This document shows positions 1-11,229 of a stretch of 11,229 nt of DNA, in pieces. Numbering within the stretch: position 1 is the first letter of the stretch; every line of letters starts with the position of its first letter. The translations under genes were made by a program, and so were the position numbers. The notes under the pieces were generated by a model that was given only the letters and a program-made list of their open reading frames with translations, was not told the DNA's origin and ran no database searches. Source of the DNA: a virus (lineage: Duplodnaviria; Heunggongvirae; Uroviricota; Caudoviricetes); IMG/VR virus record IMGVR_UViG_2778261502_000002, positions 1 to 11,229 of that record; one strand, given 5' to 3'.

Positions 1-84
1 ATGGCGGGTTATTTGTCCTGGTTATTCCCCCGTTGTAAAATCTCTCCTAAACTTAACGGTACGGCACCACACTTCGGGGATGAA

Positions 85-276
85 ATGTTCGCGCTGGTAC
101 TTTTTGTTTGCTACCTGGATGGCGGTTGTGAAGATATTGTTGTGGATGTCTACAACACGGAACAGCAGTGTCTTCATTCTATGAGCGATCAACGGATCCG
201 CCAGGGCGGTTGTTTTCCGATTGAGGATTTTATAGATGGTTTCTGGCGACCTGCGCAGGAGTACGGTGATTTTTAA
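85..276 (+). CDS. yebW: small conserved protein, YebW-like (63 aa)
   Basis: Frame is open from position 1 (track ORF 1..276); the internal ATG at 85 gives a 63-aa product MFALVLFVCYLDGG... Its stop abuts the pphA stop (276/277). Identity is recalled from the K-12 yebW-pphA neighbourhood and not verified. Confidence 0.4.
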   Translation: MFALVLFVCYLDGGCEDIVVDVYNTEQQCLHSMSDQRIRQGGCFPIEDFIDGFWRPAQEYGDF

Positions 277-933
277 TTATTGCAATTGCACAAGAGTCAG
301 TTCGCCCCCAAAGACAGCACCGGTATCAATATAATGCAGGTTGCCAATATCCACGCGATGTCGCAACGGTGTATGACCAAACCAGAAATGATCAGCACCT
401 GTAATTCCCTGCCCTTTTGGGCGTTCACCTAATCGTGAGCGGCTCCACAAGACCTGATGCAAATCAACGTCCTTTTGCCATTCATAAACATCATCTGGAT
501 AATCGGCATGAGCAATAACATGTTTGCCGGTGCGGCTGTGTACTTCAAGAATAAAGGGCAAATGCTGACATTTTTCCAGCGCCGTTTTCGCTTGTTTCTG
601 TTGATTATCTGCCAGCGCAATAAACCAGTCGCCGCCATTCATCAACCACAAAGACATCTGCTGGGATGCCAGCGCATCCATCGCCATCTGTTCATGATTG
701 CCTCTTACCGCACGAACCCAATGTTGTTCCAGTAACTGCAGACAACGTAAACTTTGCGGCCCACGATCGATAACGTCTCCCACTGAGATAAGTAAATCTC
801 GCCACGGATCAAAACGACAATGCCATAATTTGCGGCGCAACTGCTCAAGACAACCGTGTATATCGCCAGAAAGCCAGATATGTCGCCATTGATGACCCGC
901 AATTCTCTGATAAACGGGCGCAGGCTGTTTCAT
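277..933 (-). CDS. pphA: serine/threonine protein phosphatase 1 (lambda-phosphatase-like metallophosphoesterase)
   Basis: The track ORF 277..936 starts at a TTG; the first ATG is at 933, giving 218 aa MKQPAPVYQRIAGHQWRHIW... Metallophosphatase motifs GDIHG, GDVIDRG and GNHE are present. The adjacent SdsR-like fragment favours pphA over pphB. Confidence 0.8.
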   Translation of the reverse strand: MKQPAPVYQRIAGHQWRHIWLSGDIHGCLEQLRRKLWHCRFDPWRDLLISVGDVIDRGPQSLRCLQLLEQHWVRAVRGNHEQMAMDALASQQMSLWLMNGGDWFIALADNQQKQAKTALEKCQHLPFILEVHSRTGKHVIAHADYPDDVYEWQKDVDLHQVLWSRSRLGERPKGQGITGADHFWFGHTPLRHRVDIGNLHYIDTGAVFGGELTLVQLQ

Positions 934-1067
934 CAATATTTTCCTCCCGCGCTAAAGATCACATAATCTTAACAAGAATGTTAAAAAACGCTGGACTCAG
1001 ACAGTAGAGTGTGTGTTATGGTTGACTATAAAGTCAGCGAAGGAAATGCTTCTGGCTTTTAACAGAT

Positions 1068-1100
1068 AAAAAGAGACCGAACACGATTCCTGTTTTCGTC
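1068..1100 (-). ncRNA. sdsR: 3'-terminal fragment of sRNA SdsR (RyeB), terminator arm plus U-tract, probably cut by prophage insertion
   Basis: The minus strand reads ...ACAGGAAUCGUGUUCGGUCUCUUUUU (1093 down to 1068), which matches my recollection of the SdsR 3' end. The partner stem arm at 1092-1100 is degenerate (GACGAAAAC), so the hairpin cannot form. The reference sequence is recalled from memory only. Confidence 0.35.
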
Positions 1101-1397
1101 AACAAACAACAAAATCTTTTAGAATTAATGTGTTAAATAAATTTATGCTCATCTTTTAATCCCTAACACATACCATTACATATTAATACATTCAATTAGT
1201 TACCATTTTTTTCGAGTTTTTTAGAGAAATTTTCGGGAATATTTCAGATCAATCCATGCATACACAAGCAATTCCTGTATTGAATAATTCCGTAGCAATT
1301 ATGTAAAATCACCTCCGGCTGATTTTCATTCAAACTCGCGCTATCGAACGTCCATCAGCCAGCCGTGGCACGTTCTTGCATACGACGTGCTACGGTT

Positions 1398-1535
1398 TCA
1401 TTTATCTCCGACCGGACACTTCTTATACAAAGTCGATACGCCAACATCATAGATGATCGCCACCTTCTGGCGAGAAACTCCTGATGCAATTAGTCGTCCA
1501 GCCTGCGCCCATTGCTCCGGCGTGAGAGTAAGACA
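1398..1535 (-). pseudogene. C-terminal remnant of a Pin/Gin/Hin-family DNA invertase (HTH DNA-binding domain only)
   Basis: Minus-strand translation gives ...LTLTPEQWAQAGRLIASGVSRQKVAIIYDVGVSTLYKKCPVGDK*, closely resembling the Gin/Pin C-terminus as I recall it. The frame is closed by a TGA at 1554-1556, so only about 45 residues survive and there is no catalytic domain. Confidence 0.6.
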
Positions 1536-1610
1536 GTAAACTGTAGAAAAATCTCATTAAACTTAATATAATGATAAGTTACAGAATTATATTTACTGAA
1601 TAATAGATAT

Positions 1611-2156
1611 ATGAACATTAGTGAACTTAAAAACTGTATACACTATGAAGTAATAGGTTATAAACGCCCTTTCTCCTGGCGAAAAGCAATTGTTCGCGCA
1701 ATAAAACACAGAAGATTACGTTATTTATTTTGGTGGCGCATAGCAAAATATCTTTTTGATAAAGGCGGATACCGGCGAAAGGTTGCAGGAAAAATAGAAC
1801 GCTTCATTCTTGATAAATACAATGTAACCGTTCCCTTAACTGTAAATATTGGTAAAGGGTTCGACATATCTTATCTCAATGGCGTTGTTATCGGTCACAA
1901 AGTTACAATAGGTGAAAATTGTTCAATTAAGCCTGGAGTAACTATTGGACTTCGCGGTGAATTTAATGATATGGATATTGTCATAGGAAATAATGTAACC
2001 ATCGGCTGTAACGCCACCATCCTTGGTGGCAAAGTGCATATAGGGAATAATGTAAAAATAGGAGCTCATGCATTGGTACTGCATGACATTCCTGATGACT
2101 CCACATTCATTACTAAATTTCACTCTGAAATTATTTATAACTCATCTCACACATAA
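1611..2156 (+). CDS. hexapeptide-repeat (left-handed beta-helix) O-acetyltransferase, WcaB/CysE-like
   Basis: 181-aa ORF with ATG start and tandem hexapeptide repeats (VIGHKVTIGENCSI, VTIGLRG, IVIGNNVTIGCNATILGG, VHIGNNVKIGAHALV). GC content is visibly lower than the flanking phage genes. The only plus-strand gene inside the tail-fibre locus. Confidence 0.7.
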   Translation: MNISELKNCIHYEVIGYKRPFSWRKAIVRAIKHRRLRYLFWWRIAKYLFDKGGYRRKVAGKIERFILDKYNVTVPLTVNIGKGFDISYLNGVVIGHKVTIGENCSIKPGVTIGLRGEFNDMDIVIGNNVTIGCNATILGGKVHIGNNVKIGAHALVLHDIPDDSTFITKFHSEIIYNSSHT

Positions 2157-2166
2157 TTCCGTTTAA

Positions 2167-2739
2167 TCACAGCTCTGGCCATACGATATCCGGGGCTGTA
2201 TTTATATCAATCCGACTCACTAATACCCGGTATTTTTTCCAGGAAGATAGCATCGAGACTTCTTCATCAGTTGCCATTTCAAAATTAACAGCATCCTGCA
2301 GAATTGTTATGTTATCAGTCGCATCCTGGATTAATCTTGCCTTTTTCTCTTCCGCCTCCCGGATCCGGAACAGTTTTTCTGCTTCTGCATCTTTCACCCA
2401 AGCTGTGCCGTTCCACTTCTGAAACTCCCCATCCGGCGACAACCAGGTGACATTTTCCGGTAATGGGCCAAGTTCAGAAATAAATAACGCGTCGCCGGAA
2501 GCCACGTCATAGACGGTTTTATCCCGATGGTCTTCAACGAGATGCCACGATACCTCATCACTGTTGAAAACAGCCACAAAGCCAGCCGGAATATCTGGCG
2601 GTGCAATATCGGTACTGTTTGCTGGCAGACCTGTATGAGGCGGAATATATGCGTCACCTTCACCAATAAATTCATTAGTTCCGGCCAGCAGATTATAAAT
2701 TTTTATGGTCCGTGCTTGTTCAGTCATTCTGAAATCCAT
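2167..2739 (-). CDS. tail fibre assembly protein (Tfa; lambda Tfa / Mu U family)
   Basis: 190-aa ORF, ATG at 2739 with AGAGGT ribosome-binding site 5 nt upstream. Sequence [41 protein letters not shown]... matches the Tfa family as recalled from K-12 TfaE/TfaR. Confidence 0.85.
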
Positions 2740-2747
2740 GTTTACCT

Positions 2748-3650
2748 CTACTTAATATCAGAGACAGAATATTGTTTATTGAGCGTATGGGTGTGAGCAC
2801 CAATAACGATGCTACTTCCGTGGCTATGTGCGCCAGAGGTGACATTACCTACGGGATTTTCTGGATTAATCCGATGTATATGCGAATCAGGGCGAAACCG
2901 GTTATTAGCCTGATGTTGTATCAGTACATCATCAGCCTGATGTTCAGGATTAATACAGACCTGCCCGGAACGTGAGCAATACGTCCGATAATCGCCGCAT
3001 CCAATATATTTAGTATCCGCATAACGGCAAACAGAATTACCCGGACAGTATGCATATGTGCCAAATACTGCCGACTGGCGAGATTGTGCGTATTCCCAGT
3101 TAATTGATTCTGTTTTTTTATTAAAGTTATCCCAGGCCTGCTTCATCTGGCGGGCAACACTTTCAAACGGCACCTGACCACATCCGGCCCCCATTGCAGG
3201 GAATACCACCGTGGTTATTTTCCTGTCTGTTGTTGCGTTTTTATTGTGCTGAAAGATGGCAAGTAAAGCGGCCCACGTAGCGTTATATACAGCGTCTGTT
3301 CCATCAATTGTCAGCGGAACACGCATTGTTGGCGCATGTACCAGCCAGGGGTGATGATTATGCCCCGTTTCAATCACAAATGCAGAACCTACAGGCTGTT
3401 CGCCTAGATATTCACGAAGAATATGATTCTGAACGCGGGACTGTAACTGAGTACCGAAGAATGCGGTAATGGCGGCATCAACGCCTCCATCCATCAGGCC
3501 GAAACTATTTGCCGCACTTACCATGCAGTCAAATTCTCTGATTGTTTCAAATGGCTTTCCGACAATATTCACATTATCTGCATTTGCGAATACCCGCTTA
3601 AATGCTTCAGCCATTTCTGTTACTGGTGCAGAAAGAATGAGCGTAATCAT
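2748..3650 (-). CDS. macro-domain protein (ADP-ribose-binding/processing fold) with Cys-rich, HxH-containing C-terminal module
   Basis: 300-aa ORF whose ATG (3650-3648) overlaps the fibre gene stop as ATGA, with a GAGG site upstream. The N-terminal ~175 aa carry the macro signature: [18 protein letters not shown] (N-x6-GGVD loop) and [14 protein letters not shown] (second phosphate-binding loop). They align colinearly with YmdB/MacroD as recalled. The C-terminal ~125 aa have 6 Cys and HIH/HSH/HTH motifs. Confidence 0.7.
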
Positions 3651-4762
3651 GCAAGCCTCACAATATAGTTAAATGCGATGTTTTTGACGGTGTTTTCCGC
3701 GTTACCAGCAGCGTTAACGGTGATGGTGTGTCCATGTGAGCCAATTGCAACGGAGTGCGTATGTGCACCAATACCGACAGTATGTGTATGCGCCCCAGCA
3801 CTTGCTGCAGTACCTGATACTGAGTGGGTATGCGCGCCAGCAGAATTCGTTGCACCTAAGTGAGTTTGAGCAGAGTTCGACGAAGCTACTCTACCGGAGC
3901 TAACGTTAGCATTATCCCCCTGAGATATCGGATGCGTATGTGCACCTGCTGAAGCTGCTGTTCCGCTAACGCTATGGGTATGCGCACCAGTGTTATTCGT
4001 AGATTTAGTTCCATAATCAAACGATGATGTGTTTTTTGTCCCTAAATCTGTATTTGAAGCACTGGCGCTGTGGGTGTGCGATTTAATGCCGTCCTGTTCC
4101 AGGCTAAGAACATCACGTCCACTTGCAGGCTTACCTTTGATTGTCCAGCCACGCATATCAGGGATCACGCCTGACGGATAAGCGGCTGCAAGTTTCGGGT
4201 ATGCAGACTTGTCAAAAGTCTGTCCCTGCATCAGAGCATAACCAGATGGAACTGTATCTGATGGCCACGGGATCGGGGCACCTACAGGAAAGGTCGAATT
4301 ATTTTCCAAACCAAGATATTTAAGGACATCAGCAACAGAGCTTTTTGCCAAAATATCTCGCCCAACCTGTGTCAGGTCAGCCAAATTAGCGGTATCTTGA
4401 TTGGTAAAATACGGTAATTTGTTTTCGGATGCTGAAAGATTAGCAAGTGCGGTAAGTATGGCATTAATTCTCTGATAGTTCTTATCTAATGCAGACGACA
4501 TTTTTGCGATAAAGCCGGCCTGATCGCCATCGTCCTGTACATCCAGTCCACTTTCATTTGCTGTATATTGTGCTATTGCAGATGCAATAAAGCTGGCCTG
4601 CCGAATAACCTTATTGACTTGCGCACTGGATGCTTTCCCTGCTGTAAATCCGGATAAAAGCGCAGGCAACGCTTCCCATTCCTCCTGCGACATAACATTG
4701 GCATTTTTACCCGTTGCGAATGCTTTAAAGTCATTTTTTGCCATCAGAGTAATACTCCCCAT
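3647..4762 (-). CDS. side tail fibre protein with HxH-repeat distal domain
   Basis: 371-aa ORF. An alternative ATG at 4744 overlaps the upstream gene stop (TGATG) and may be the true start. The C-terminal third contains seven HxH motifs and a duplicated 19-aa unit [19 protein letters not shown]. Position between baseplate genes and tfa fits a fibre gene. Confidence 0.8.
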
Positions 4763-5424
4763 GCCCCTACATCAAAACCACTGATAAATTCGTTATCCAT
4801 ATCAAAACCAAAAAATTTTGAACCTTCCGATGGGGTTTCCACCGAAGGTGTTTCAATGCCACCCGCCCACACCCCGGCGGCTTTTACTGTGAGATATCCC
4901 TGTTTAATTGCAGCAATTAACTCACGCGATACATCTGAAATATCTGTATCAGGAAAGGCCCAGACCGATATCGTCATGTCCTGGTTATCGACAATCTGCA
5001 TTCGCAGCCCGGATCCTGCTGTCGCCGCGTCAAGAATTGCTGGAAGCGAATCATTCCGTCCGTCCCAGTTATTAATCGCAATCTTCGCTTTAAGGATGAC
5101 ACGATAAGTTTCATCGCTGAGGTACATGTATCCGTAATCAGGATCGTATGGCCCCTGCCATACACCCTGATCATATCCAAGCCCGTCGGTATCCCAGCTG
5201 AAATAGACACCTGAGATAAGCTGGCTGACAACACGACTACGTCCGATCCACAATCCCAGAATGTCAAGTTGCACACCAACCGCGGAGTCAATATCAAATG
5301 CAGTAATCAACCCTCTGGTGGCCGCCGCAACATCAATAAGCGGCCGGGTCATCAGATCAACATGCGCAAGAAATTTAGGTTTGGTGGCGTGGTAGTTCGT
5401 GATTAGTTCGGTGTATTTGCTCAT
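4744..5424 (-). CDS. baseplate protein, Mu gp48 / P2 gpI-like (YmfQ/DUF2313-type)
   Basis: 226-aa ORF whose ATG overlaps the J-like gene stop (ATGA at 5421-5424). Assignment rests on position between the J-like gene and the fibre gene, plus family resemblance. Confidence 0.7.
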
Positions 5425-6620
5425 GACTCCACCGTTATAACGATATTTTCCGGGGTACAGGACGCAGATTCGTTATATCTGATATCAATGTTTGATGACG
5501 ACAAAGCCCCCGGAGATTTACCAATCGTCAGTTCCTGAATATCGTAATAGCGTGCATTCCCGCCACTCACCACGCCAAGATTCGCCGGTGAGTAAATGCG
5601 ACTTAAAAGGACCGAATCACCGATCGTCAGACTATTGATATAGTCGGAAATAGCCTGCTGGATCTGCTGCCCTATCTGTGAGGTATAACCCGTAAAAACT
5701 TTTAATTTAATCCGGGCATAAACAGGCACATCACTGGAACGCGAGAATTTGATTACATGGGGATTGCCGTATTTATCCGGAACCGTAACGGATGTTGTAC
5801 CGTGAGTGGCTGTCCCCTGGCCTTTATTCCCTCTGATAGCCTGAGCAATATCCGTTACATCACCGCCATCCACAATTACAGCAACAGAGTGTGGCGGTAA
5901 CCCGTTACCGTCCTCCGAACCAGTATCGTTTTCATAGAGTTTGTGGCGGGTTACACCGGTAACATTAGAAACAGCACCATCCAGTGCTTCAAATGGGGTT
6001 ATTGATGGCAACGCAACACTTTGCGACTGGCGGATACGTAACTCCGCATCAGTTTCTGCCGGAGTGCCCACAGTAGCCGCAGCAGGATTAGTTACCGAAA
6101 CCCAGCCACGGGTTGGCGTATTAATTTCAGTGATAGTTCCAGCCAGCGCCGCCACTGCACCACTGACGGAACATTTTGCGGTCACCATCACTGTACCATC
6201 CACGCCGACCACCACTGAAGCAGGCAAACGCCATATCACATTATTACTGTCTTTCACGCTGCCATTAATGATGGTTGTTCCGGCAGTTCCTGTAAGAAGC
6301 AAATCAACCGTAGAATTCGTCGCGCCTTTACGTGAAATACCATTTATTTTCACGTTACTGGTCAGTGCAGCCCCATAGCCGGTTGCCGGTGAAAAACAGT
6401 TGTAGACAGTTATCGCCATATTATTGGCATCATGAATCGCCAGCGCCATCAGAGCCACCATCTGGCCGTCTTTGCTGTCCGGTTCGAGGTAGGCATCACT
6501 GCCATAAATCTGCTGAAAATAGCTAATCAGGGTGCTGAGTATCGTCTGATAATCAGGCGCACTGATCCCCTCCGCGGTTACCTTTGCAGATAAACCGAGA
6601 GAATCAAGGTTCAGAGCCAT
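5421..6620 (-). CDS. baseplate J-like protein (Mu gp47 / P2 gpJ / T4 gp6 family)
   Basis: 399-aa ORF, ATG at 6620 overlapping the upstream stop (TAATG). Size and position in the spike / gp25-like / J / I gene order support the call. Confidence 0.75.
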   Translation of the reverse strand: MALNLDSLGLSAKVTAEGISAPDYQTILSTLISYFQQIYGSDAYLEPDSKDGQMVALMALAIHDANNMAITVYNCFSPATGYGAALTSNVKINGISRKGATNSTVDLLLTGTAGTTIINGSVKDSNNVIWRLPASVVVGVDGTVMVTAKCSVSGAVAALAGTITEINTPTRGWVSVTNPAAATVGTPAETDAELRIRQSQSVALPSITPFEALDGAVSNVTGVTRHKLYENDTGSEDGNGLPPHSVAVIVDGGDVTDIAQAIRGNKGQGTATHGTTSVTVPDKYGNPHVIKFSRSSDVPVYARIKLKVFTGYTSQIGQQIQQAISDYINSLTIGDSVLLSRIYSPANLGVVSGGNARYYDIQELTIGKSPGALSSSNIDIRYNESASCTPENIVITVES

Positions 6621-6973
6621 TACGCCTCCGATGTAACAGTCGTTATTCCATAGAGAGTGTCGATTTCAGCGGAAAACATGACACGTCGGGTCGTGGTATC
6701 CACCGTCGTATTGAAAGAGAGGATTGATTTAACGCCCCGCGTTTCGAGGATGCGCTTACGGATCGCCAGGTTGTAGGTTTCCGGCTTCTGCTTACCGAGT
6801 ACGGACTGGATCCACGGAGTCCCCTCGGTGGTGTCGAGAAACCATTGCCCATACCACAATTCGAATCGCGTTTTTACCGCCTGCGCCACGGCCTCCGGTG
6901 AGTTAATCAGCCAGGTGTCATCACCGCTGCCAAAGGTGTAATCGCCATCGGCGTCTTCACGTCTGTATCGCAT
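6620..6973 (-). CDS. small baseplate protein (gpW/gp25-like, Mu gp46 position)
   Basis: 117-aa ORF, ATG at 6973 overlapping the spike gene stop (ATGA). Assigned by size and position between spike and J-like genes; the family call is tentative. Confidence 0.55.
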   Translation of the reverse strand: MRYRREDADGDYTFGSGDDTWLINSPEAVAQAVKTRFELWYGQWFLDTTEGTPWIQSVLGKQKPETYNLAIRKRILETRGVKSILSFNTTVDTTTRRVMFSAEIDTLYGITTVTSEA

Positions 6974-7725
6974 CAGTTTACCCCATCGGTATTGCTTCCA
7001 CCGCGCTGAACACCGCCATGAGTGTGCGTATCATCGATTGGCTTGCCGTTAGCCTTCACGCTACCCAAAAACTCAACAGCACCAGTGATTTTTGAAGCCA
7101 CACCAGAAACAACAGACCCCACCATGCCACCCATCCAGGTTAACAGGCCATGAATGGTTACTTTCTCAGAAAAATCAGCCAGGGGGGCAACCACATCAAG
7201 CCCCCCCGGAGCGACAATTTTAATTTTCCTGGTATCAGGATTAAGCTCAAAATAGGTGCTGCCGTCGTCACTACGCAACTGTGTGGCACTGGTATTAATA
7301 CCGCTAATCTTCCTAGCTTGCGACTGGGGACCGACAATACAAAACGCATCCGATAAATCATGCATTCTGTCATCAACAGGCTCCTGTATCCCGCCGCTCT
7401 GCCACCAGAAATCAATACAACGATCGGCAAAAACGACAAGACACTCATCCCCGGCTTTTACCGGAAAAGTCAACGTACAGCCTCCGCCGCGCGGGAATAC
7501 CACTGGCACATCCACCAGCAGGGGTAATGTCGTCGACTGGTTGATTCCATTTGAGTCCGGCTCATAGCCTTTAATCGCAGGTTGAACAACCACTGTTACC
7601 GTGTCCGGATCAAATGACTGGACGATGCCGGGCATAGAAACACGCAGCGCCGACATGACAGAGCCAGCAAGTCTTACATCGGCCTGTTCTTTGCTACCAA
7701 GTTGAGCGCTTAAAGAAACGGGCAT
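6973..7725 (-). CDS. baseplate spike / assembly protein V-like (Mu gp45 / P2 gpV family)
   Basis: 250-aa ORF, ATG at 7725 with a GGAGA site 7 nt upstream. Contains a GDECLVVFADR segment that fits the gpV N-terminal fold as I recall it. C-terminus GKPIDDTHTHGG has an HxH motif as in metal-loaded spike tips. Confidence 0.7.
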   Translation of the reverse strand: MPVSLSAQLGSKEQADVRLAGSVMSALRVSMPGIVQSFDPDTVTVVVQPAIKGYEPDSNGINQSTTLPLLVDVPVVFPRGGGCTLTFPVKAGDECLVVFADRCIDFWWQSGGIQEPVDDRMHDLSDAFCIVGPQSQARKISGINTSATQLRSDDGSTYFELNPDTRKIKIVAPGGLDVVAPLADFSEKVTIHGLLTWMGGMVGSVVSGVASKITGAVEFLGSVKANGKPIDDTHTHGGVQRGGSNTDGVN

Positions 7726-7744
7726 TCATATGTCTCCAGAAAGT

Positions 7745-7766
7745 AAAAAACCCGCCGGGTGGCGGG
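7745..7766 (-). terminator. rho-independent terminator for minus-strand transcription
   Basis: Perfect 6-bp GC stem CCCGCC/GGCGGG (7751-7756 and 7761-7766) with a 4-nt loop, followed on the minus strand by UUUUUU (7750-7745). Lies 19 nt downstream of the small membrane protein gene stop. Confidence 0.7.
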
Positions 7767-7784
7767 TTCATTATTGAAGTTTCA

Positions 7785-8024
7785 TTACTGCTTGTTTGCT
7801 TCTAACGCTTCAGCTATTCGGCGAAGATACTCATTGTTTTTAAATGAAACCATGATGCACTCAAAGAATATTCGGCAAAATACAGCACATAACAAAAGCA
7901 CTAAAGCGCCAGCAGCCTTCCCATTAACAAACGTTATAATGGCGGCAACAACCAGAAGTAACATTGTGATGCCATACAGAACGTTGATGATTTTTGGAGT
8001 TATTAATTTATCAAATCCGAACAT
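7785..8024 (-). CDS. small membrane protein (79 aa, two predicted TM helices), moron
   Basis: ATG at 8024 with AAGGAA site 9 nt upstream. Two hydrophobic stretches: ITMLLLVVAAIITFV and AAGALVLLLCAVFCRIFF. Low GC. Flanked by its own promoter-like sequence and terminator. Confidence 0.55.
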   Translation of the reverse strand: MFGFDKLITPKIINVLYGITMLLLVVAAIITFVNGKAAGALVLLLCAVFCRIFFECIMVSFKNNEYLRRIAEALEANKQ

Positions 8025-8060
8025 GTGACAAATTCCTTATCGTGAAAGTAGAAGTATCAC

Positions 8061-8088
8061 ATTATAATTACGAGTGATTAATCAACAA
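8061..8088 (-). promoter_or_regulatory. candidate sigma70 promoter (TTGTTG-N16-TATAAT) for the small membrane protein gene
   Basis: On the minus strand, -35 TTGTTG is the complement of 8083-8088 and -10 TATAAT is the complement of 8061-8066, with a 16-nt spacer. It sits about 35 nt upstream of the ATG at 8024. Sequence-only prediction. Confidence 0.35.
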
Positions 8089-8163
8089 TCTTTTTGCATG
8101 GAAAGGAACCGATGATTTTCGGCGCATCCATGCTGTTCTGCAGAAGCTGGACGCCAATGTAAT

Positions 8164-8499
8164 TCACTTCACCTTCCGGCAATCATACGTCCAGAACTCC
8201 CGAGGCTCGTCCATATTTTTGCGGATAACTTCAACGTTGAGGATCGCTTTTTTGTTTCGTTTGATGTAGTCCATACCTAACCAACGTCCAGTATTAGGAT
8301 CAGGTAACATCCATTGCATCATGACATTATCGAAATCGTCTTTTTGTTTCAAAAAGGTCATTTTTTGTGTTTCTGGCTTTTGACCATTGATGTGCATGAG
8401 GCCATCATTACCAGCATCAAAGCGGAATGGTCCGCACTGCGTTGCCGCCGAAACTGTTAACGGCAGGGCCAAGAATAAACAAAAAAATACTTTTTTCAC
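8164..8499 (-). CDS. secreted/periplasmic small protein (111 aa, signal peptide), moron
   Basis: GTG start at 8499 overlapping the hub gene stop (GTGA), with a GGAG site 7 nt upstream. N-terminus MKKVFFCLFLALPLTVSA|ATQ is a typical Sec signal peptide with a VSA cleavage motif. Two Cys in the mature part. No lipobox. Confidence 0.6.
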   Translation of the reverse strand: MKKVFFCLFLALPLTVSAATQCGPFRFDAGNDGLMHINGQKPETQKMTFLKQKDDFDNVMMQWMLPDPNTGRWLGMDYIKRNKKAILNVEVIRKNMDEPREFWTYDCRKVK

Positions 8500-9530
8500 T
8501 CTACATCTCCGACTTTGTCCAAAGTGCCTTTTGCCAATAGTTCTTTGCCACCTTTAGCCAGGCAAAGCAGGTCCATATACCACGCCTGCCCTCGGGTGTC
8601 GCCAGTATAATCAATGCTGCCCACAATGTAATCACCGTCAGTATTAATGCTGGCAGGCTGTGACATGCCTGGCAGACCGTTAACGTAGAGATTACCGTCG
8701 CTTTCAGACTCATCCAGTAGTGCTGGCGATTTCGCTACCTGGTCATTACTCAAAGAGGCACGGTATACAGATGCCTGATCCAGACGAATAAGCCCACCGA
8801 GCTTAATATTTGGATTAATCAGACATCTGACATTTACGCCAGCTCCCATCGTCTGCTGTGGCATACCGATAAGCCCGGTGTTAGCATTCAACACCGTAGC
8901 AACACCAATATATTTATCTTCAGGAACAATATTTACCAGATTATTTTCATACCACCAGTTAGCCTTACACTGCCCTGCGATATGATTCATCAACCTTGAT
9001 GTGTTTTGATAAACAACGCGACCCCGGGGAAATACCGTTTCAGGCATGTCAGGAACTGCGCCGGATTCGATGCCATATGGTTCGAATGATTTCATACCCA
9101 GACTGAAAAGATCTCTGTACTTCCAGCCAGCTGCCACTGTGGTTTTCACACTTGCGTTCAGGTGGCCTTCCCAGCTGTCAATACACTGCAACATGATCCA
9201 ACTGTCTGTGGCATTATCTTTACCAGTGACAGTAAAACGGATATCTCCATTGAATATCATACCAACGTTTTCATCAGGATAATTACCTGCTGCATCCGGT
9301 TGCCCCTTGTATCCGGCAATAACCTGTATACGCGAAAACTCCTTCTGCATAATCCGGTTCTGAGTGGTAGGGGACAGGTTATAAACCTTAAAATTCCCAA
9401 CGAATCCATTGAATATGGTCGCAGGCATTTTCTGAATATTGAAAGTGACTTTAAGCTCAGAAATTTTTATCCCGTCGCCCTTATCATCAACAAGCAATAA
9501 TTCAAAGTGACGCATCCAGTTTTTCGACAT
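8496..9530 (-). CDS. baseplate hub / tail protein (Mu gp44 / P2 gpD-like), putative
   Basis: 344-aa ORF, ATG at 9530 with GGAG site 6 nt upstream. It immediately precedes the spike gene block in Mu-type order. The family call is by position and size only. Confidence 0.55.
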   Translation of the reverse strand: MSKNWMRHFELLLVDDKGDGIKISELKVTFNIQKMPATIFNGFVGNFKVYNLSPTTQNRIMQKEFSRIQVIAGYKGQPDAAGNYPDENVGMIFNGDIRFTVTGKDNATDSWIMLQCIDSWEGHLNASVKTTVAAGWKYRDLFSLGMKSFEPYGIESGAVPDMPETVFPRGRVVYQNTSRLMNHIAGQCKANWWYENNLVNIVPEDKYIGVATVLNANTGLIGMPQQTMGAGVNVRCLINPNIKLGGLIRLDQASVYRASLSNDQVAKSPALLDESESDGNLYVNGLPGMSQPASINTDGDYIVGSIDYTGDTRGQAWYMDLLCLAKGGKELLAKGTLDKVGDVE

Positions 9531-9532
9531 TG

Positions 9533-9835
9533 TTACTCCGTGAAAACATAGAGGTGTGAGAGCGTTCCAAGATCGAATTGCGTCGGATTCTCCTGCCCTG
9601 CCACGTCGCAGAGCACCACCAGAGAAAAACCCAGATCCATATATCGATACTGTGCCAGCAGGTCAGCCCCCGTAATCATCGGTATACCTGATATAATGGC
9701 GGAGCCATTGCTGTCAGCAAGATCCAGAACCCAGTACTCGCCTCGCCAGATGACAGACAGGTGATAAACCGAACCGTTAATTGTGGTGGCAAAAGTCTGA
9801 TTGTCAGCAACCAGTGGGATTTCTACGGCTTTCAT
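9533..9835 (-). CDS. hypothetical phage tail-module protein (100 aa)
   Basis: ATG at 9835 with AAGGTGA site upstream; the stop lies 2 nt before the hub gene start. No family recognised. Confidence 0.5.
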   Translation of the reverse strand: MKAVEIPLVADNQTFATTINGSVYHLSVIWRGEYWVLDLADSNGSAIISGIPMITGADLLAQYRYMDLGFSLVVLCDVAGQENPTQFDLGTLSHLYVFTE

Positions 9836-9838
9836 GAA

Positions 9839-10198
9839 TCACCTTCCCAGAAATAAATTGCTCAAATACCCATCAACAGTGGAGATACCTTCTTGCGCCA
9901 TCTGTGGCAGCGATTTCAGAATGGAATTATTCGGCGGCACCGTTGTTTTGGTGCCTGTATTCTGCACAGCAGACGTTCCGACTCCCTCGGTCATATTGTT
10001 TTTCGGGGCAATGCGAATACCTTTGCGGGTCATATCATCCGGGATAGCATCGACTGCTTCGCCGATGATCCAGGACGAACGATAGGACCATTCCACCAGC
10101 ATGCGGTTACGACTGGTGAAATTAGCCCGGTAGGTGGATGCAGAGTGCTGGTTAGGTGTCTGCATCCCTAATGGGCGACGCAACATACCAGGAAACAT
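9839..10198 (-). CDS. hypothetical protein, possibly the 3' fragment of a truncated upstream tail gene
   Basis: 119-aa ORF. An in-frame stop lies 27 nt upstream of its ATG, and its 5' end overlaps the start of the plus-strand exonuclease-like ORF, so the start context looks non-native. Confidence 0.3.
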   Translation of the reverse strand: MFPGMLRRPLGMQTPNQHSASTYRANFTSRNRMLVEWSYRSSWIIGEAVDAIPDDMTRKGIRIAPKNNMTEGVGTSAVQNTGTKTTVPPNNSILKSLPQMAQEGISTVDGYLSNLFLGR

Positions 10199-11229
10199 TC
10201 GATGAAGAGAATCAGGTTGAAGCTAAGGAAAATGATCCGGAGGAAATGGAAGGCGCTGAACATCCGCACAAGGAGAACGCTGGCAGCAATCCGCATTGCG
10301 ATTGCAGTGATGAAGCTGGTGAAGCGACAGCACCTGTAGAAACTGAAATCATGTGGCCGTCATATTTCGAGCCAGGCCGCTATGAAAACCTCCCGAACGA
10401 GGTTTATCACTCCGCCAACGGAATAAGCAGCACAATGCTGAAGGATGCCCGCATCAGCCTGATGTATTACCACGGACGGCACATTGCCGGAACTATTCCG
10501 GGCGAGGAAAGTGATGCATTGCTGCGTGGGCGGATTATTCACAGCTATGTTCTGGAAACGGATAAATTCGCTGATGAGTATGCCATTCCGGTACCGGTTC
10601 CTGAATATGTGGTTACTACTTCTAACGAACTGATCGCCATCATTAAAAAACACAATGCCAGTCTGCCAGCACCGATGACACCAGAGCAGATGAAAGAGTG
10701 GATCGAAAGCTACAACAGCACTCTTATACAGCCACTGTCGGTAAGTGCCGGGGCCGAAGAAACAGGCATCCTTTACTGTTCGCTTCCGGAGGAATTCCGG
10801 CGTATTCCTGAGGGGGAAAAACACACAGCATCAGCAATGAAAGCCTGTATTAAAGAATACAACGCAAACCTCCCTCCTCTGTTGAAAACCAGTGGATCAC
10901 GGGAGCAACTTCTGGAGCAAATTGAAACTGTAGATCCAGAACTGGCAAAAAAAGAACGTGCTAAATCTTTGCCTTACAACATCAGTGGCACAAAAGAGCA
11001 ATTAACCGAAATCGCACGGAAAATTCGCCCGGAACTGGTGACACTGGAAGACTGGCAAAAACGCCAGCAAGAAGAAAACGCCGGGAAAACGTTTATCAGT
11101 CCGGATATGTATGAACAGGCAAAAAATATTCACGCTGCACTGCAAAACAATACCGATGCAGCAAGGCTACTCAACCACCCGGATCGCAAATCTGAAATCA
11201 GCTATTTCGGGTTTGATGAAGAAACCGGG
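10171..11229 (+). CDS. partial ORF (at least 353 codons, runs off the window end), putative phage exonuclease (RecE/exonuclease VIII-like); 5' end uncertain
   Basis: Long open frame not in the ORF track because it has no stop within the window. An in-frame TAG lies at 10153-10155; candidate starts are ATG 10171, 10246 (GGAGG upstream) and 10351. The product is acidic and K/E-rich. The exonuclease assignment is from weak recollection and needs a search. Confidence 0.45.
   Translation, partial: MGDATYQETFDEENQVEAKENDPEEMEGAEHPHKENAGSNPHCDCSDEAGEATAPVETEIMWPSYFEPGRYENLPNEVYHSANGISSTMLKDARISLMYYHGRHIAGTIPGEESDALLRGRIIHSYVLETDKFADEYAIPVPVPEYVVTTSNELIAIIKKHNASLPAPMTPEQMKEWIESYNSTLIQPLSVSAGAEETGILYCSLPEEFRRIPEGEKHTASAMKACIKEYNANLPPLLKTSGSREQLLEQIETVDPELAKKERAKSLPYNISGTKEQLTEIARKIRPELVTLEDWQKRQQEENAGKTFISPDMYEQAKNIHAALQNNTDAARLLNHPDRKSEISYFGFDEETG

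Follow-up and report, generated by a model that had tools for sequence, protein, structure and literature searches.

A beta-helix gene at the end of a prophage

We examined a window of 11,229 nucleotides (the whole stretch of DNA analysed here, positions 1 to 11,229 of IMG/VR virus record IMGVR_UViG_2778261502_000002), within which the Escherichia coli chromosome is joined to the end of a prophage, and focused on one gene of that prophage, an open reading frame (ORF) at 1611-2156 whose product is predicted to form a left-handed beta-helix (LbH) and which we refer to as the LbH gene. The kind of element, a beta-helix transferase carried as a moron beside receptor-binding genes, is already known. 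What is new is that the function annotated for this gene is, judged from its sequence, wrong; that the catalytic histidine of the fold is replaced in a clade that is nevertheless strongly conserved; and that the gene moves as a unit with the tail-fibre assembly gene tfa and the tip of the tail fibre, across three types of phage. The features of the window that bear on these points are as follows.

1-276, chromosomal gene yebW (DUF1482)
277-936, chromosomal gene pphA (metallophosphatase)
1398-1529, minus strand, remnant of a Cin/Pin/Gin-type DNA invertase of which only the C-terminal helix-turn-helix is left (44 codons)
1544-1572, plus strand, sigma-70-type promoter-like site (TAGAAA, 17 nt, TATAAT) at the left edge of the mobile block
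1611-2156, plus strand, the LbH gene, a 181-residue hexapeptide-repeat ORF (PHROG 2154)
2167-2739, minus strand, tail-fibre assembly (chaperone) gene tfa (Pfam Caudo_TAP, E=1e-37)
2748-3650, minus strand, macro-domain ORF
3647-4762, minus strand, tail-fibre gene (Pfam Collar and Phage_fiber), with its C-terminal (distal) part at 3647-4273
Right of the LbH gene, minus strand, myovirus-type tail module (Pam3-gp18-like plug, baseplate hub, gpV spike, Baseplate_J)
Right of the LbH gene within the tail module, minus strand, DUF2612 gene (Pfam)

The junction between chromosome and prophage lies at about window position 1098, where homology to all 5,426 complete E. coli genomes ends. The LbH gene is situated at the prophage end, ~500 bp from this junction, and the interval between the two consists of the 44-codon invertase remnant and AT-rich island DNA; on its other side a gap of 10 bp separates the LbH stop codon from tfa, the two genes being convergent. 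A preliminary description of this DNA, made from the letters alone, had taken the gene for prophage cargo at the tail-fibre end, and both its position and its mobility across three phage types (described below) bear this out.

Fold and family membership

The LbH protein matches the hexapeptide-repeat model PF00132 with 50.6 bits (gathering cut-off 27, E=1e-13). An AlphaFold model built from a 78-sequence alignment reached a predicted local distance difference test (pLDDT) score of 91 and consists of a short helical N-domain and, after it, a left-handed beta-helix; an earlier model from 21 sequences (pLDDT 67, with the active-site coil below 50) was discarded. When the accepted model, which is of a monomer, was compared with solved structures using Foldseek, the top 50 PDB hits were all serine acetyltransferases (SATs), with template-modelling (TM) scores of 0.6-0.76 and about 0.7 for the best hit, and the closest solved sequences were likewise SATs (E=2e-13, 26-35% identity over the beta-helix). 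The modelled structure places the protein in the hexapeptide/left-handed beta-helix acyltransferase superfamily, with a SAT fold, as the preliminary description had proposed. By analogy with that superfamily it presumably forms trimers, in which three pockets between the subunits would bind acyl-coenzyme A (acyl-CoA).

Assignment to any named enzyme family is another matter, as every NCBIfam equivalog score of the protein lies far under its cut-off. The two CysE models gave 77.9 against a cut-off of 210.65 (TIGR01172) and 52.8 against 397 (PRK11132), EpsC gave 85.5 against 150 (E=3e-24) and WcaB gave 60.3 against 196 (E=1.5e-16); similarity to the Vat, CatB, Maa and LacA models is weak, and much weaker than to the SAT/EpsC/WcaB group. 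The earlier characterization of the protein as WcaB/CysE-like thus stands for its fold and sequence neighbourhood, and falls for membership in either family. The LbH protein does match PHROG 2154 over its full length (E=1.2e-77, with residues 1-180 aligned to positions 4-184 of the 185 in the profile), a group whose category is 'unknown function'. Its closest relatives are phage and prophage proteins and not housekeeping CysE (91% identity to a protein of Escherichia phage vB_EcoM-613R2 and 52% to one of Hafnia phage yong2); a housekeeping SAT with a conserved CysE active site was not found among its nearest relatives. The family is small, with only four 50%-identity clusters at E<=1e-30 among 1.84 billion representatives. 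The RefSeq/PGAP product name of the gene is nonetheless 'serine acetyltransferase'.

Replacement of the SAT active site

When aligned without gaps to solved SATs and to E. coli CysE (whose numbering here agrees with published residue numbers), the LbH protein has Tyr88 opposite CysE His158, Thr73 opposite Asp143, Ser87 opposite Asp157, Met121 opposite Arg192 and Asp122 opposite His193, such that all five of the five alignable active-site residues are replaced. In SATs the general base is His158, which is partnered by Asp143, while Asp92, Asp157, Arg192 and His193 hold the substrate (PMC9547175, PMC8786284). The first ~110 residues of CysE, including Asp92, have no counterpart in the 181-residue LbH protein.

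It is extremely improbable, given these differences, that the gene encodes a true serine O-acetyltransferase acting as an auxiliary metabolic gene that boosts cysteine synthesis. The database name and the best fold and solved-structure matches would favour such a role, but the CysE scores, the replacement of every alignable catalytic and serine-binding residue and the loss of the Asp92-bearing N-terminal domain all speak against it, as does a C-terminus that reads ...SSHT and lacks the Ile-terminated tail by which SATs bind CysK. Because its scores fall under the cut-offs and its alignable active-site residues are replaced, we conclude on sequence evidence that the LbH protein is not a serine acetyltransferase and that the name carried by this phage family in the databases is wrong.

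The substitution of the catalytic residues is a property of a clade. Among 249 aligned homologues of 100-300 residues, 226 have histidine at the catalytic column, and 179 of those 226 have aspartate or glutamate at the partner column; tyrosine occupies the catalytic column in only 18, 17 of them within the LbH gene's own clade. The family alignment divides in the same way: all nine sequences with at least 52% identity to the LbH protein combine Tyr with Thr, Lys or Val, and all twelve at 43-50% identity combine His with Asp or Glu. A neighbour-joining tree of 103 unique sequences unites its 30 Tyr-type proteins in one monophyletic group, sister to an enterobacterial His-type clade, and the change from histidine to tyrosine therefore appears to have been a single switch. 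Six columns strictly separate the two clades (positions 88, 95, 118, 121, 122 and 130 of the window protein), three of which fall on the five alignable SAT active-site positions (hypergeometric p ~6e-4 by our own estimate), and the Tyr clade has gained a nearly invariant Met-Asp pair at 121-122.

The ratio of nonsynonymous to synonymous substitution rates (dN/dS) between the LbH gene and its P1-like alleles is 0.07-0.11 at a synonymous divergence (dS) of 0.43-0.75, and 0.16 in comparison with the 52%-identical copy of Hafnia phage yong2. Given these low ratios, and the fact that the beta-helix residues invariant across the family are all kept in the LbH protein, the gene is not decaying and the Tyr clade is under strong purifying selection.

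A catalytic histidine is regarded as universal in solved LbH acyltransferases (PMC3046976, PMC8786284). The replacement of the His-Asp dyad by Tyr-Thr therefore makes acetyl transfer by the standard mechanism doubtful, and the working O-acetyltransferase that the preliminary description had assumed can no longer be taken for granted. In the complex of the Neisseria gonorrhoeae SAT (NgSAT) with serine, the serine hydroxyl is hydrogen-bonded to both the catalytic His162 and His197 (PMC8786284). Position 122 of the LbH protein is equivalent to NgSAT His197 and, because that residue contacts the acceptor hydroxyl, Asp122 could plausibly act as a base. The pocket has been rebuilt in the Tyr clade, with Tyr88 and Thr73 in place of the His/Asp pair and with Asp122 appearing on the neighbouring subunit.

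A different outcome of the same changes would be a pseudoenzyme, in which acyl transfer has been lost and the protein, still as lysogen cargo, works by binding (as a binder of CoA, acyl-CoA or a sugar nucleotide, as a decoy, or as an inhibitor of a host or phage protein). This is unlikely, although a serious possibility: both dyad residues were replaced together in a monophyletic clade, the residue lost is the one held to be universal in the fold (PMC3046976), and the strength of purifying selection shows that the protein is of use in its altered form. The changes are centred on the pocket, however, with the gained Met-Asp pair at a substrate-contacting position, which suggests re-tooling rather than decay, and the family-conserved beta-helix residues have been kept; moreover, no candidate binding partner other than tfa is conserved, and tfa belongs to a different expression programme.

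Composition and expression signals

The guanine-plus-cytosine (GC) content of the LbH gene is 36.1%; the genes for tail, fibre and baseplate have 45.5-53.7%, and the window as a whole has 46.1%. The stretch upstream of the LbH gene (1496-1610) has 33.9% GC and contains a TATAAT at 1567-1572; on both counts the preliminary description, which had remarked on an AT-rich gene behind an AT-rich, TATAAT-bearing leader, was accurate. A TAGAAA hexamer at 1544-1549 precedes the TATAAT with a spacer of 17 nt, forming a 10/12 match that is the best promoter-like site in positions 900-2900, a region in which 9 sites of this quality were found against 6.5 expected by chance. Both hexamers (−35 and −10) are kept in the lambdoid and P1-like copies of the locus; the sequences upstream of the −35 hexamer are unrelated between those copies, and similarity begins at that hexamer, with homology to the P1-like plasmids starting at window 1537-1543. 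Because the two hexamers are conserved and the boundary of homology falls at the −35 element, we place this site above the chance background.

The strength of the ribosome-binding site, which had been described as weak, proved to be poorer still. The LbH gene has no Shine-Dalgarno sequence at all, its duplex with the anti-Shine-Dalgarno sequence having an energy of +0.4 kcal/mol as compared with −5.6 to −10.3 kcal/mol for 12 other genes of the window. No phase-variable tandem repeats were found within the LbH gene, the only array being an AT-rich one of 1.9 copies of a 14-nt unit in its leader. Phase variation of the kind known for the prophage-encoded enzyme NeuO was rejected, as the gene is without repeats.

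On the minus strand, a terminator-like hairpin followed by a T-run lies at 2066-2086, inside the LbH coding region and ~80 nt beyond the tfa stop codon. The late fibre operon could terminate at this point, antisense to the cargo gene, with such sites occurring at chance level (1 found, 1.4 expected).

Distribution and linkage to the fibre tip

Of the 5,426 complete E. coli genomes, 91 carry the LbH gene; 65 of its locations are on chromosomes and 27 on plasmids. The copy in the enterotoxigenic strain H10407 (NC_017633.1, 5120860-5121525) is 97% identical. The plasmid copies lie on P1-like phage-plasmids, of which NZ_CP062860.1 is an example, with flanks 97-98% identical to Punavirus JL22, and the chromosomal copies include lambdoid prophages, for example beside stfR and lom near prfC. 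Window positions 1537-2733, comprising the promoter-like site, the LbH gene and the whole of tfa, form a single block of ~1.2 kb that is 85% identical in a P1-like plasmid; extended leftward to 1326, and so including the invertase stump, the block is 96% identical in the lambdoid prophage at prfC. Three unrelated phage settings (lambdoid, P1-like and the myovirus-type prophage) therefore carry the same pair of genes. With its low GC content, its own promoter-like site, its presence/absence polymorphism and its transfer between unrelated phages, the LbH gene has the appearance of an autonomous moron.

Adjacency to tfa was counted over the 89 loci whose downstream sequence was long enough. At 40 of 41 Tyr-type loci and at 21 of 48 His-type loci, tfa is convergent and situated within −36 to +51 bp, and the arrangement is seen in 9 of 20 sequence clusters defined at 70% identity. 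The linkage extends into the fibre gene, with blastn homology to the C-terminal tip covering at least 250 bp in 27 of 38 Tyr-type loci and at least 197 bp in 35 of them. Annotations of Hafnia phage yong2, Citrobacter phage phiNP and Punavirus JL22, which carry more distant members of the family, show the gene in the same slot. (A megablast search with tfa alone missed some P1-like loci; this was an artefact of word size, as a longer query aligned through tfa at 85%.)

The association does not hold in the opposite direction, nor for the whole family. A query containing the window tfa matches 4,441 of the 5,426 genomes as against 91 for the LbH gene, and fibres therefore assemble without it. One His-type relative (45-50% identical) is solitary between copA and cueR on the chromosome of Pseudocitrobacter vendiensis, in a non-phage setting (locus L090, 4989-5540), and another within the same range of identity directly follows the integrase of the P2-like Escherichia phage ESSI2_ev015 (locus L003, 5917-6615). 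The family is thus not confined to the tail-fibre slot, and the existence of solitary chromosomal His-type genes indicates that the protein needs no phage partner.

Such relatives, solitary or beside the integrase in P2-like hotspots, would also fit a protein directed at a small molecule or intracellular target (a metabolite, antibiotic, toxin, signalling nucleotide or protein), with a role in detoxification, anti-phage defence or counter-defence. The locus is a variability hotspot with known cargo of the latter two kinds (bioRxiv 10.1101/2024.10.15.618418), the hosts span several genera and E. coli serotypes, as might be expected if the acceptor is conserved and intracellular, and Vat, CatB, Maa and LacA, to which the protein is weakly similar, are beta-helix enzymes that act on targets of this sort. 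We nonetheless consider an intracellular target unlikely. No PADLOC defence model matches the LbH protein, on which ground a known defence system was rejected; the similarity to antibiotic and sugar acetyltransferases is much weaker than that to the SAT/EpsC/WcaB group; and the tight linkage to the fibre tip and Tfa would be left unexplained.

The invertase remnant

The invertase stump aligns with residues 146-180 of Cin of phage JL22 (tblastn, 63% identity, E=1e-12, window 1413-1517) and ends just left of the LbH promoter; in related loci RefSeq labels it 'helix-turn-helix domain-containing protein' or a DNA-invertase pseudogene. A search for a gix/cix/hix crossover core (AAACCNNGGTTT-type) with up to one mismatch found none, and no suitable inverted repeat is present in window 1200-5000. 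An active invertible segment at this locus was accordingly rejected: with the invertase reduced to a stump and no crossover sites, inversion is impossible here and the arrangement is frozen.

The corresponding locus of JL22 shows the ancestral type of setting. Its homologue of the LbH gene, sacF (37% identical and His-type), is situated between U' and tfa within the invertible C segment flanked by cin (locus L006, 1773-6120), downstream of S'-U' and on the same strand. In the window, the stump beside the LbH promoter implies that a formerly invertible segment lost its alternative fibre genes and part of its invertase to the LbH gene, which took their place. Inversion in JL22 would put sacF downstream of the late fibre operon, raising the possibility that expression of the cargo depends on orientation.

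This setting bears on whether the LbH protein might have a role in the virion, being needed for, or modifying, the fibre or Tfa and expressed late, for example after inversion of the segment. The position of sacF in JL22, the near-obligate adjacency to tfa in the Tyr clade and the invertase remnant that abuts the LbH gene in the window are all compatible with such a role. We consider it very unlikely all the same, since the LbH gene lies antisense to the late fibre operon, behind a promoter-like site of its own, the 44-codon stump is without a crossover core or flanking inverted repeat, the tfa-containing query is found in far more genomes than the LbH gene, and His-type relatives live outside phages.

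The macro-domain gene

The preliminary description had also suggested, with the macro-domain ORF in mind, that the two products form an acetylation/deacetylation pair. Macro domains can deacetylate O-acetyl-ADP-ribose, the NCBIfam models give weak matches below their cut-offs, and in the window 600 bp separate the two genes. Their distribution, however, makes the pairing highly improbable, and we rejected it on that basis. The macro gene is present in 128 of the 5,426 genomes and the LbH gene in 91, with the two adjacent in 7 only, which amounts to 7 of 86 LbH-bearing and 7 of 127 macro-bearing genomes. None of 38 further Tyr-type loci has a macro gene. A 98-99% identical prophage at the same chromosomal site, encoding an identical LbH protein, is without window 2740-3645, such that the macro gene corresponds to a 906-bp insertion/indel between the tail-fibre gene and tfa.

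The two genes are, in addition, on opposite strands with different expression signals. The start codon of the macro ORF overlaps the stop codon of the fibre gene (ATGA) on the late strand, indicating translational coupling; its product has a His-rich, fibre-like C-terminus (GAHSHG...GAHTHT), and its macro region matches a PHROG annotated 'tail protein'. On the strength of these three properties we assign the macro gene to the virion programme. The macro domain may be carried on the tail fibre, which would be unusual.

Other features of the window

Between the end of universal E. coli homology and the invertase stump lies an AT-rich non-coding stretch (1099-1325, ~32-34% GC) that occurs in ~89 genomes, some of them without the LbH gene; it may contain the attachment site, or the junction, of elements that use a site downstream of pphA. 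The AT-rich region 937-1354, searched for non-coding RNA and chromosomal small RNA, gave no Rfam match at gathering thresholds.

Two small low-GC ORFs on the minus strand inside the baseplate module (7785-8024 and 8164-8499) have the look of additional cargo genes set within the structural operon; one encodes a DUF4282 membrane protein (37.5% GC) and the other a protein of 111 residues with a signal-peptide-like N-terminus (42.6% GC) and no Pfam match. Adjoining the baseplate genes is a weak portal-protein fragment (9839-10198, minus strand), and a long plus-strand ORF (~10170-11229), which we take to resemble a RecE/exonuclease VIII-type protein, runs past the end of the window. The portal fragment and the RecE-like ORF suggest that the prophage is mosaic or degraded, and not intact.

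Proposed function

The reading that we favour, tentatively and with somewhat less than even confidence, is that the LbH protein is produced in the lysogen, where it would transfer acyl groups to an acceptor other than serine. The most plausible candidate is an envelope glycan precursor that the linked fibre makes use of, and the effect would be exclusion or conversion. A sigma-70-type promoter of its own and one AT-rich ORF would make up an autonomous moron, fused to a fibre-tip/Tfa host-range block that appears to recombine among lambdoid prophages, P1-like phage-plasmids and P2/Mu-type myoviruses, with the LbH gene taking the slot, next to what remains of a DNA invertase, that is normally occupied by alternative fibre genes. 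Its product would be a soluble, cytoplasmic, acyl-transferase-like protein of SAT fold, produced at a low level in the lysogen independently of the late genes. It might pass the acyl group to a sugar of the envelope glycan precursor that serves as receptor of the linked fibre, with the role of base being taken by Asp122, or by the acceptor itself if that is an amine. The outcome could be superinfection exclusion or surface conversion, travelling together with the matching receptor-binding module. Linkage to a fibre-tip/Tfa block is the arrangement expected of a receptor-modifying conversion gene and, like the preliminary description, we infer modification of a surface polysaccharide.

Several observations weigh against this proposal. 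The catalytic histidine is absent, which makes transferase activity itself putative; the gene is without a Shine-Dalgarno sequence; and no PADLOC model is matched. The carriers include at least two O-serogroups (O177 and enterotoxigenic E. coli (ETEC) H10407), which argues against an O-antigen-specific acceptor. Adjacency to tfa could stem from a common hotspot of recombination or insertion and have no functional meaning; hotspot DNA of the Z/fun type holds mixed cargo as well as invertases (bioRxiv 10.1101/2024.10.15.618418). The paper on JL22 states that the reason why the gene is present in the phage is unknown (PMC9603915), a study of Citrobacter rodentium prophages only lists it as 'fitness' cargo (PMC6456863), and our literature search for a characterised phage member of the family returned only annotations or statements of unknown role.

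A more specific version of the proposal, which we regard as rather doubtful, is that the block constitutes a matched pair of receptor-binding and receptor-masking or exclusion functions, within which the Tyr clade has been neo-functionalised and has either a relocated, non-histidine base or a non-catalytic role. Such a pair, if real, would be a transferable unit of host range and immunity of a kind not yet described for the beta-helix fold.

Should the LbH protein be active, it would be a beta-helix acyltransferase that works without the histidine thought to be universal in the family. The block would then be a portable unit of receptor-binding module and receptor modifier, common to E. coli P1-like plasmids and prophages including that of the ETEC reference strain H10407, with a bearing on phage host range, phage therapy and surface antigenicity. 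Should it be inactive, it would be a conserved pseudoenzyme retained by phages. In either case, the widespread name 'serine acetyltransferase' for this phage family is not to be read as indicating an auxiliary gene of cysteine metabolism.

Comparison with known systems

NeuO, a prophage-encoded beta-helix O-acetyltransferase, modifies the K1 capsule and increases resistance to phage (PMC3046976, PMC13001214). Like the LbH gene, this polysialic-acid O-acetyltransferase of E. coli K1 prophage CUS-3 is a single-gene beta-helix cargo borne by a prophage. The two proteins belong to different beta-helix subfamilies, with no NeuO-type model among the matches of the LbH protein. A catalytic His and Trp, 5' heptanucleotide repeats that are phase-variable, and a known acceptor distinguish NeuO; the LbH gene is without repeats and its product has Tyr at the His position.

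CysE (solved structures 1T3D, 4N69, 7RA4 and 8I04) is closest to the LbH protein in fold and sequence, and shares with it the last helices of the N-domain. The LbH protein differs in lacking the first ~110 residues, and with them Asp92 and the hexamer interface, and in having no CysK-binding tail. Enzymes of the WcaB (colanic acid) and EpsC type agree with it in size class (160-200 residues) and domain layout and provide its best NCBIfam neighbourhood. They have a His plus Asp/Glu dyad, which is kept in the His-type sister clade and lost from the Tyr clade, and they belong to polysaccharide gene clusters, unlike the LbH gene, which is found in phages next to tfa and which in this prophage sits between the invertase remnant and tfa.

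The phage 'serine acetyltransferases' of PHROG 2154 (in vB_EcoM-613R2 and yong2 and, more distantly, sacF of JL22 and sat of phiNP) are of the same family as the LbH protein. In its setting, the gene resembles the morons of the P2 Z/fun hotspot, which are likewise autonomous cargo 3' of tfa, often lie beside an invertase or its remnant and are swapped between unrelated phage families (bioRxiv 10.1101/2024.10.15.618418). It differs from them in that its cargo is an enzyme-like beta-helix protein, and in that, instead of moving alone, it appears to be tied to tfa and the fibre tip as a fixed pair. The sopE cassette of SopE-phi and lambdoid phages is a comparable moron cassette.

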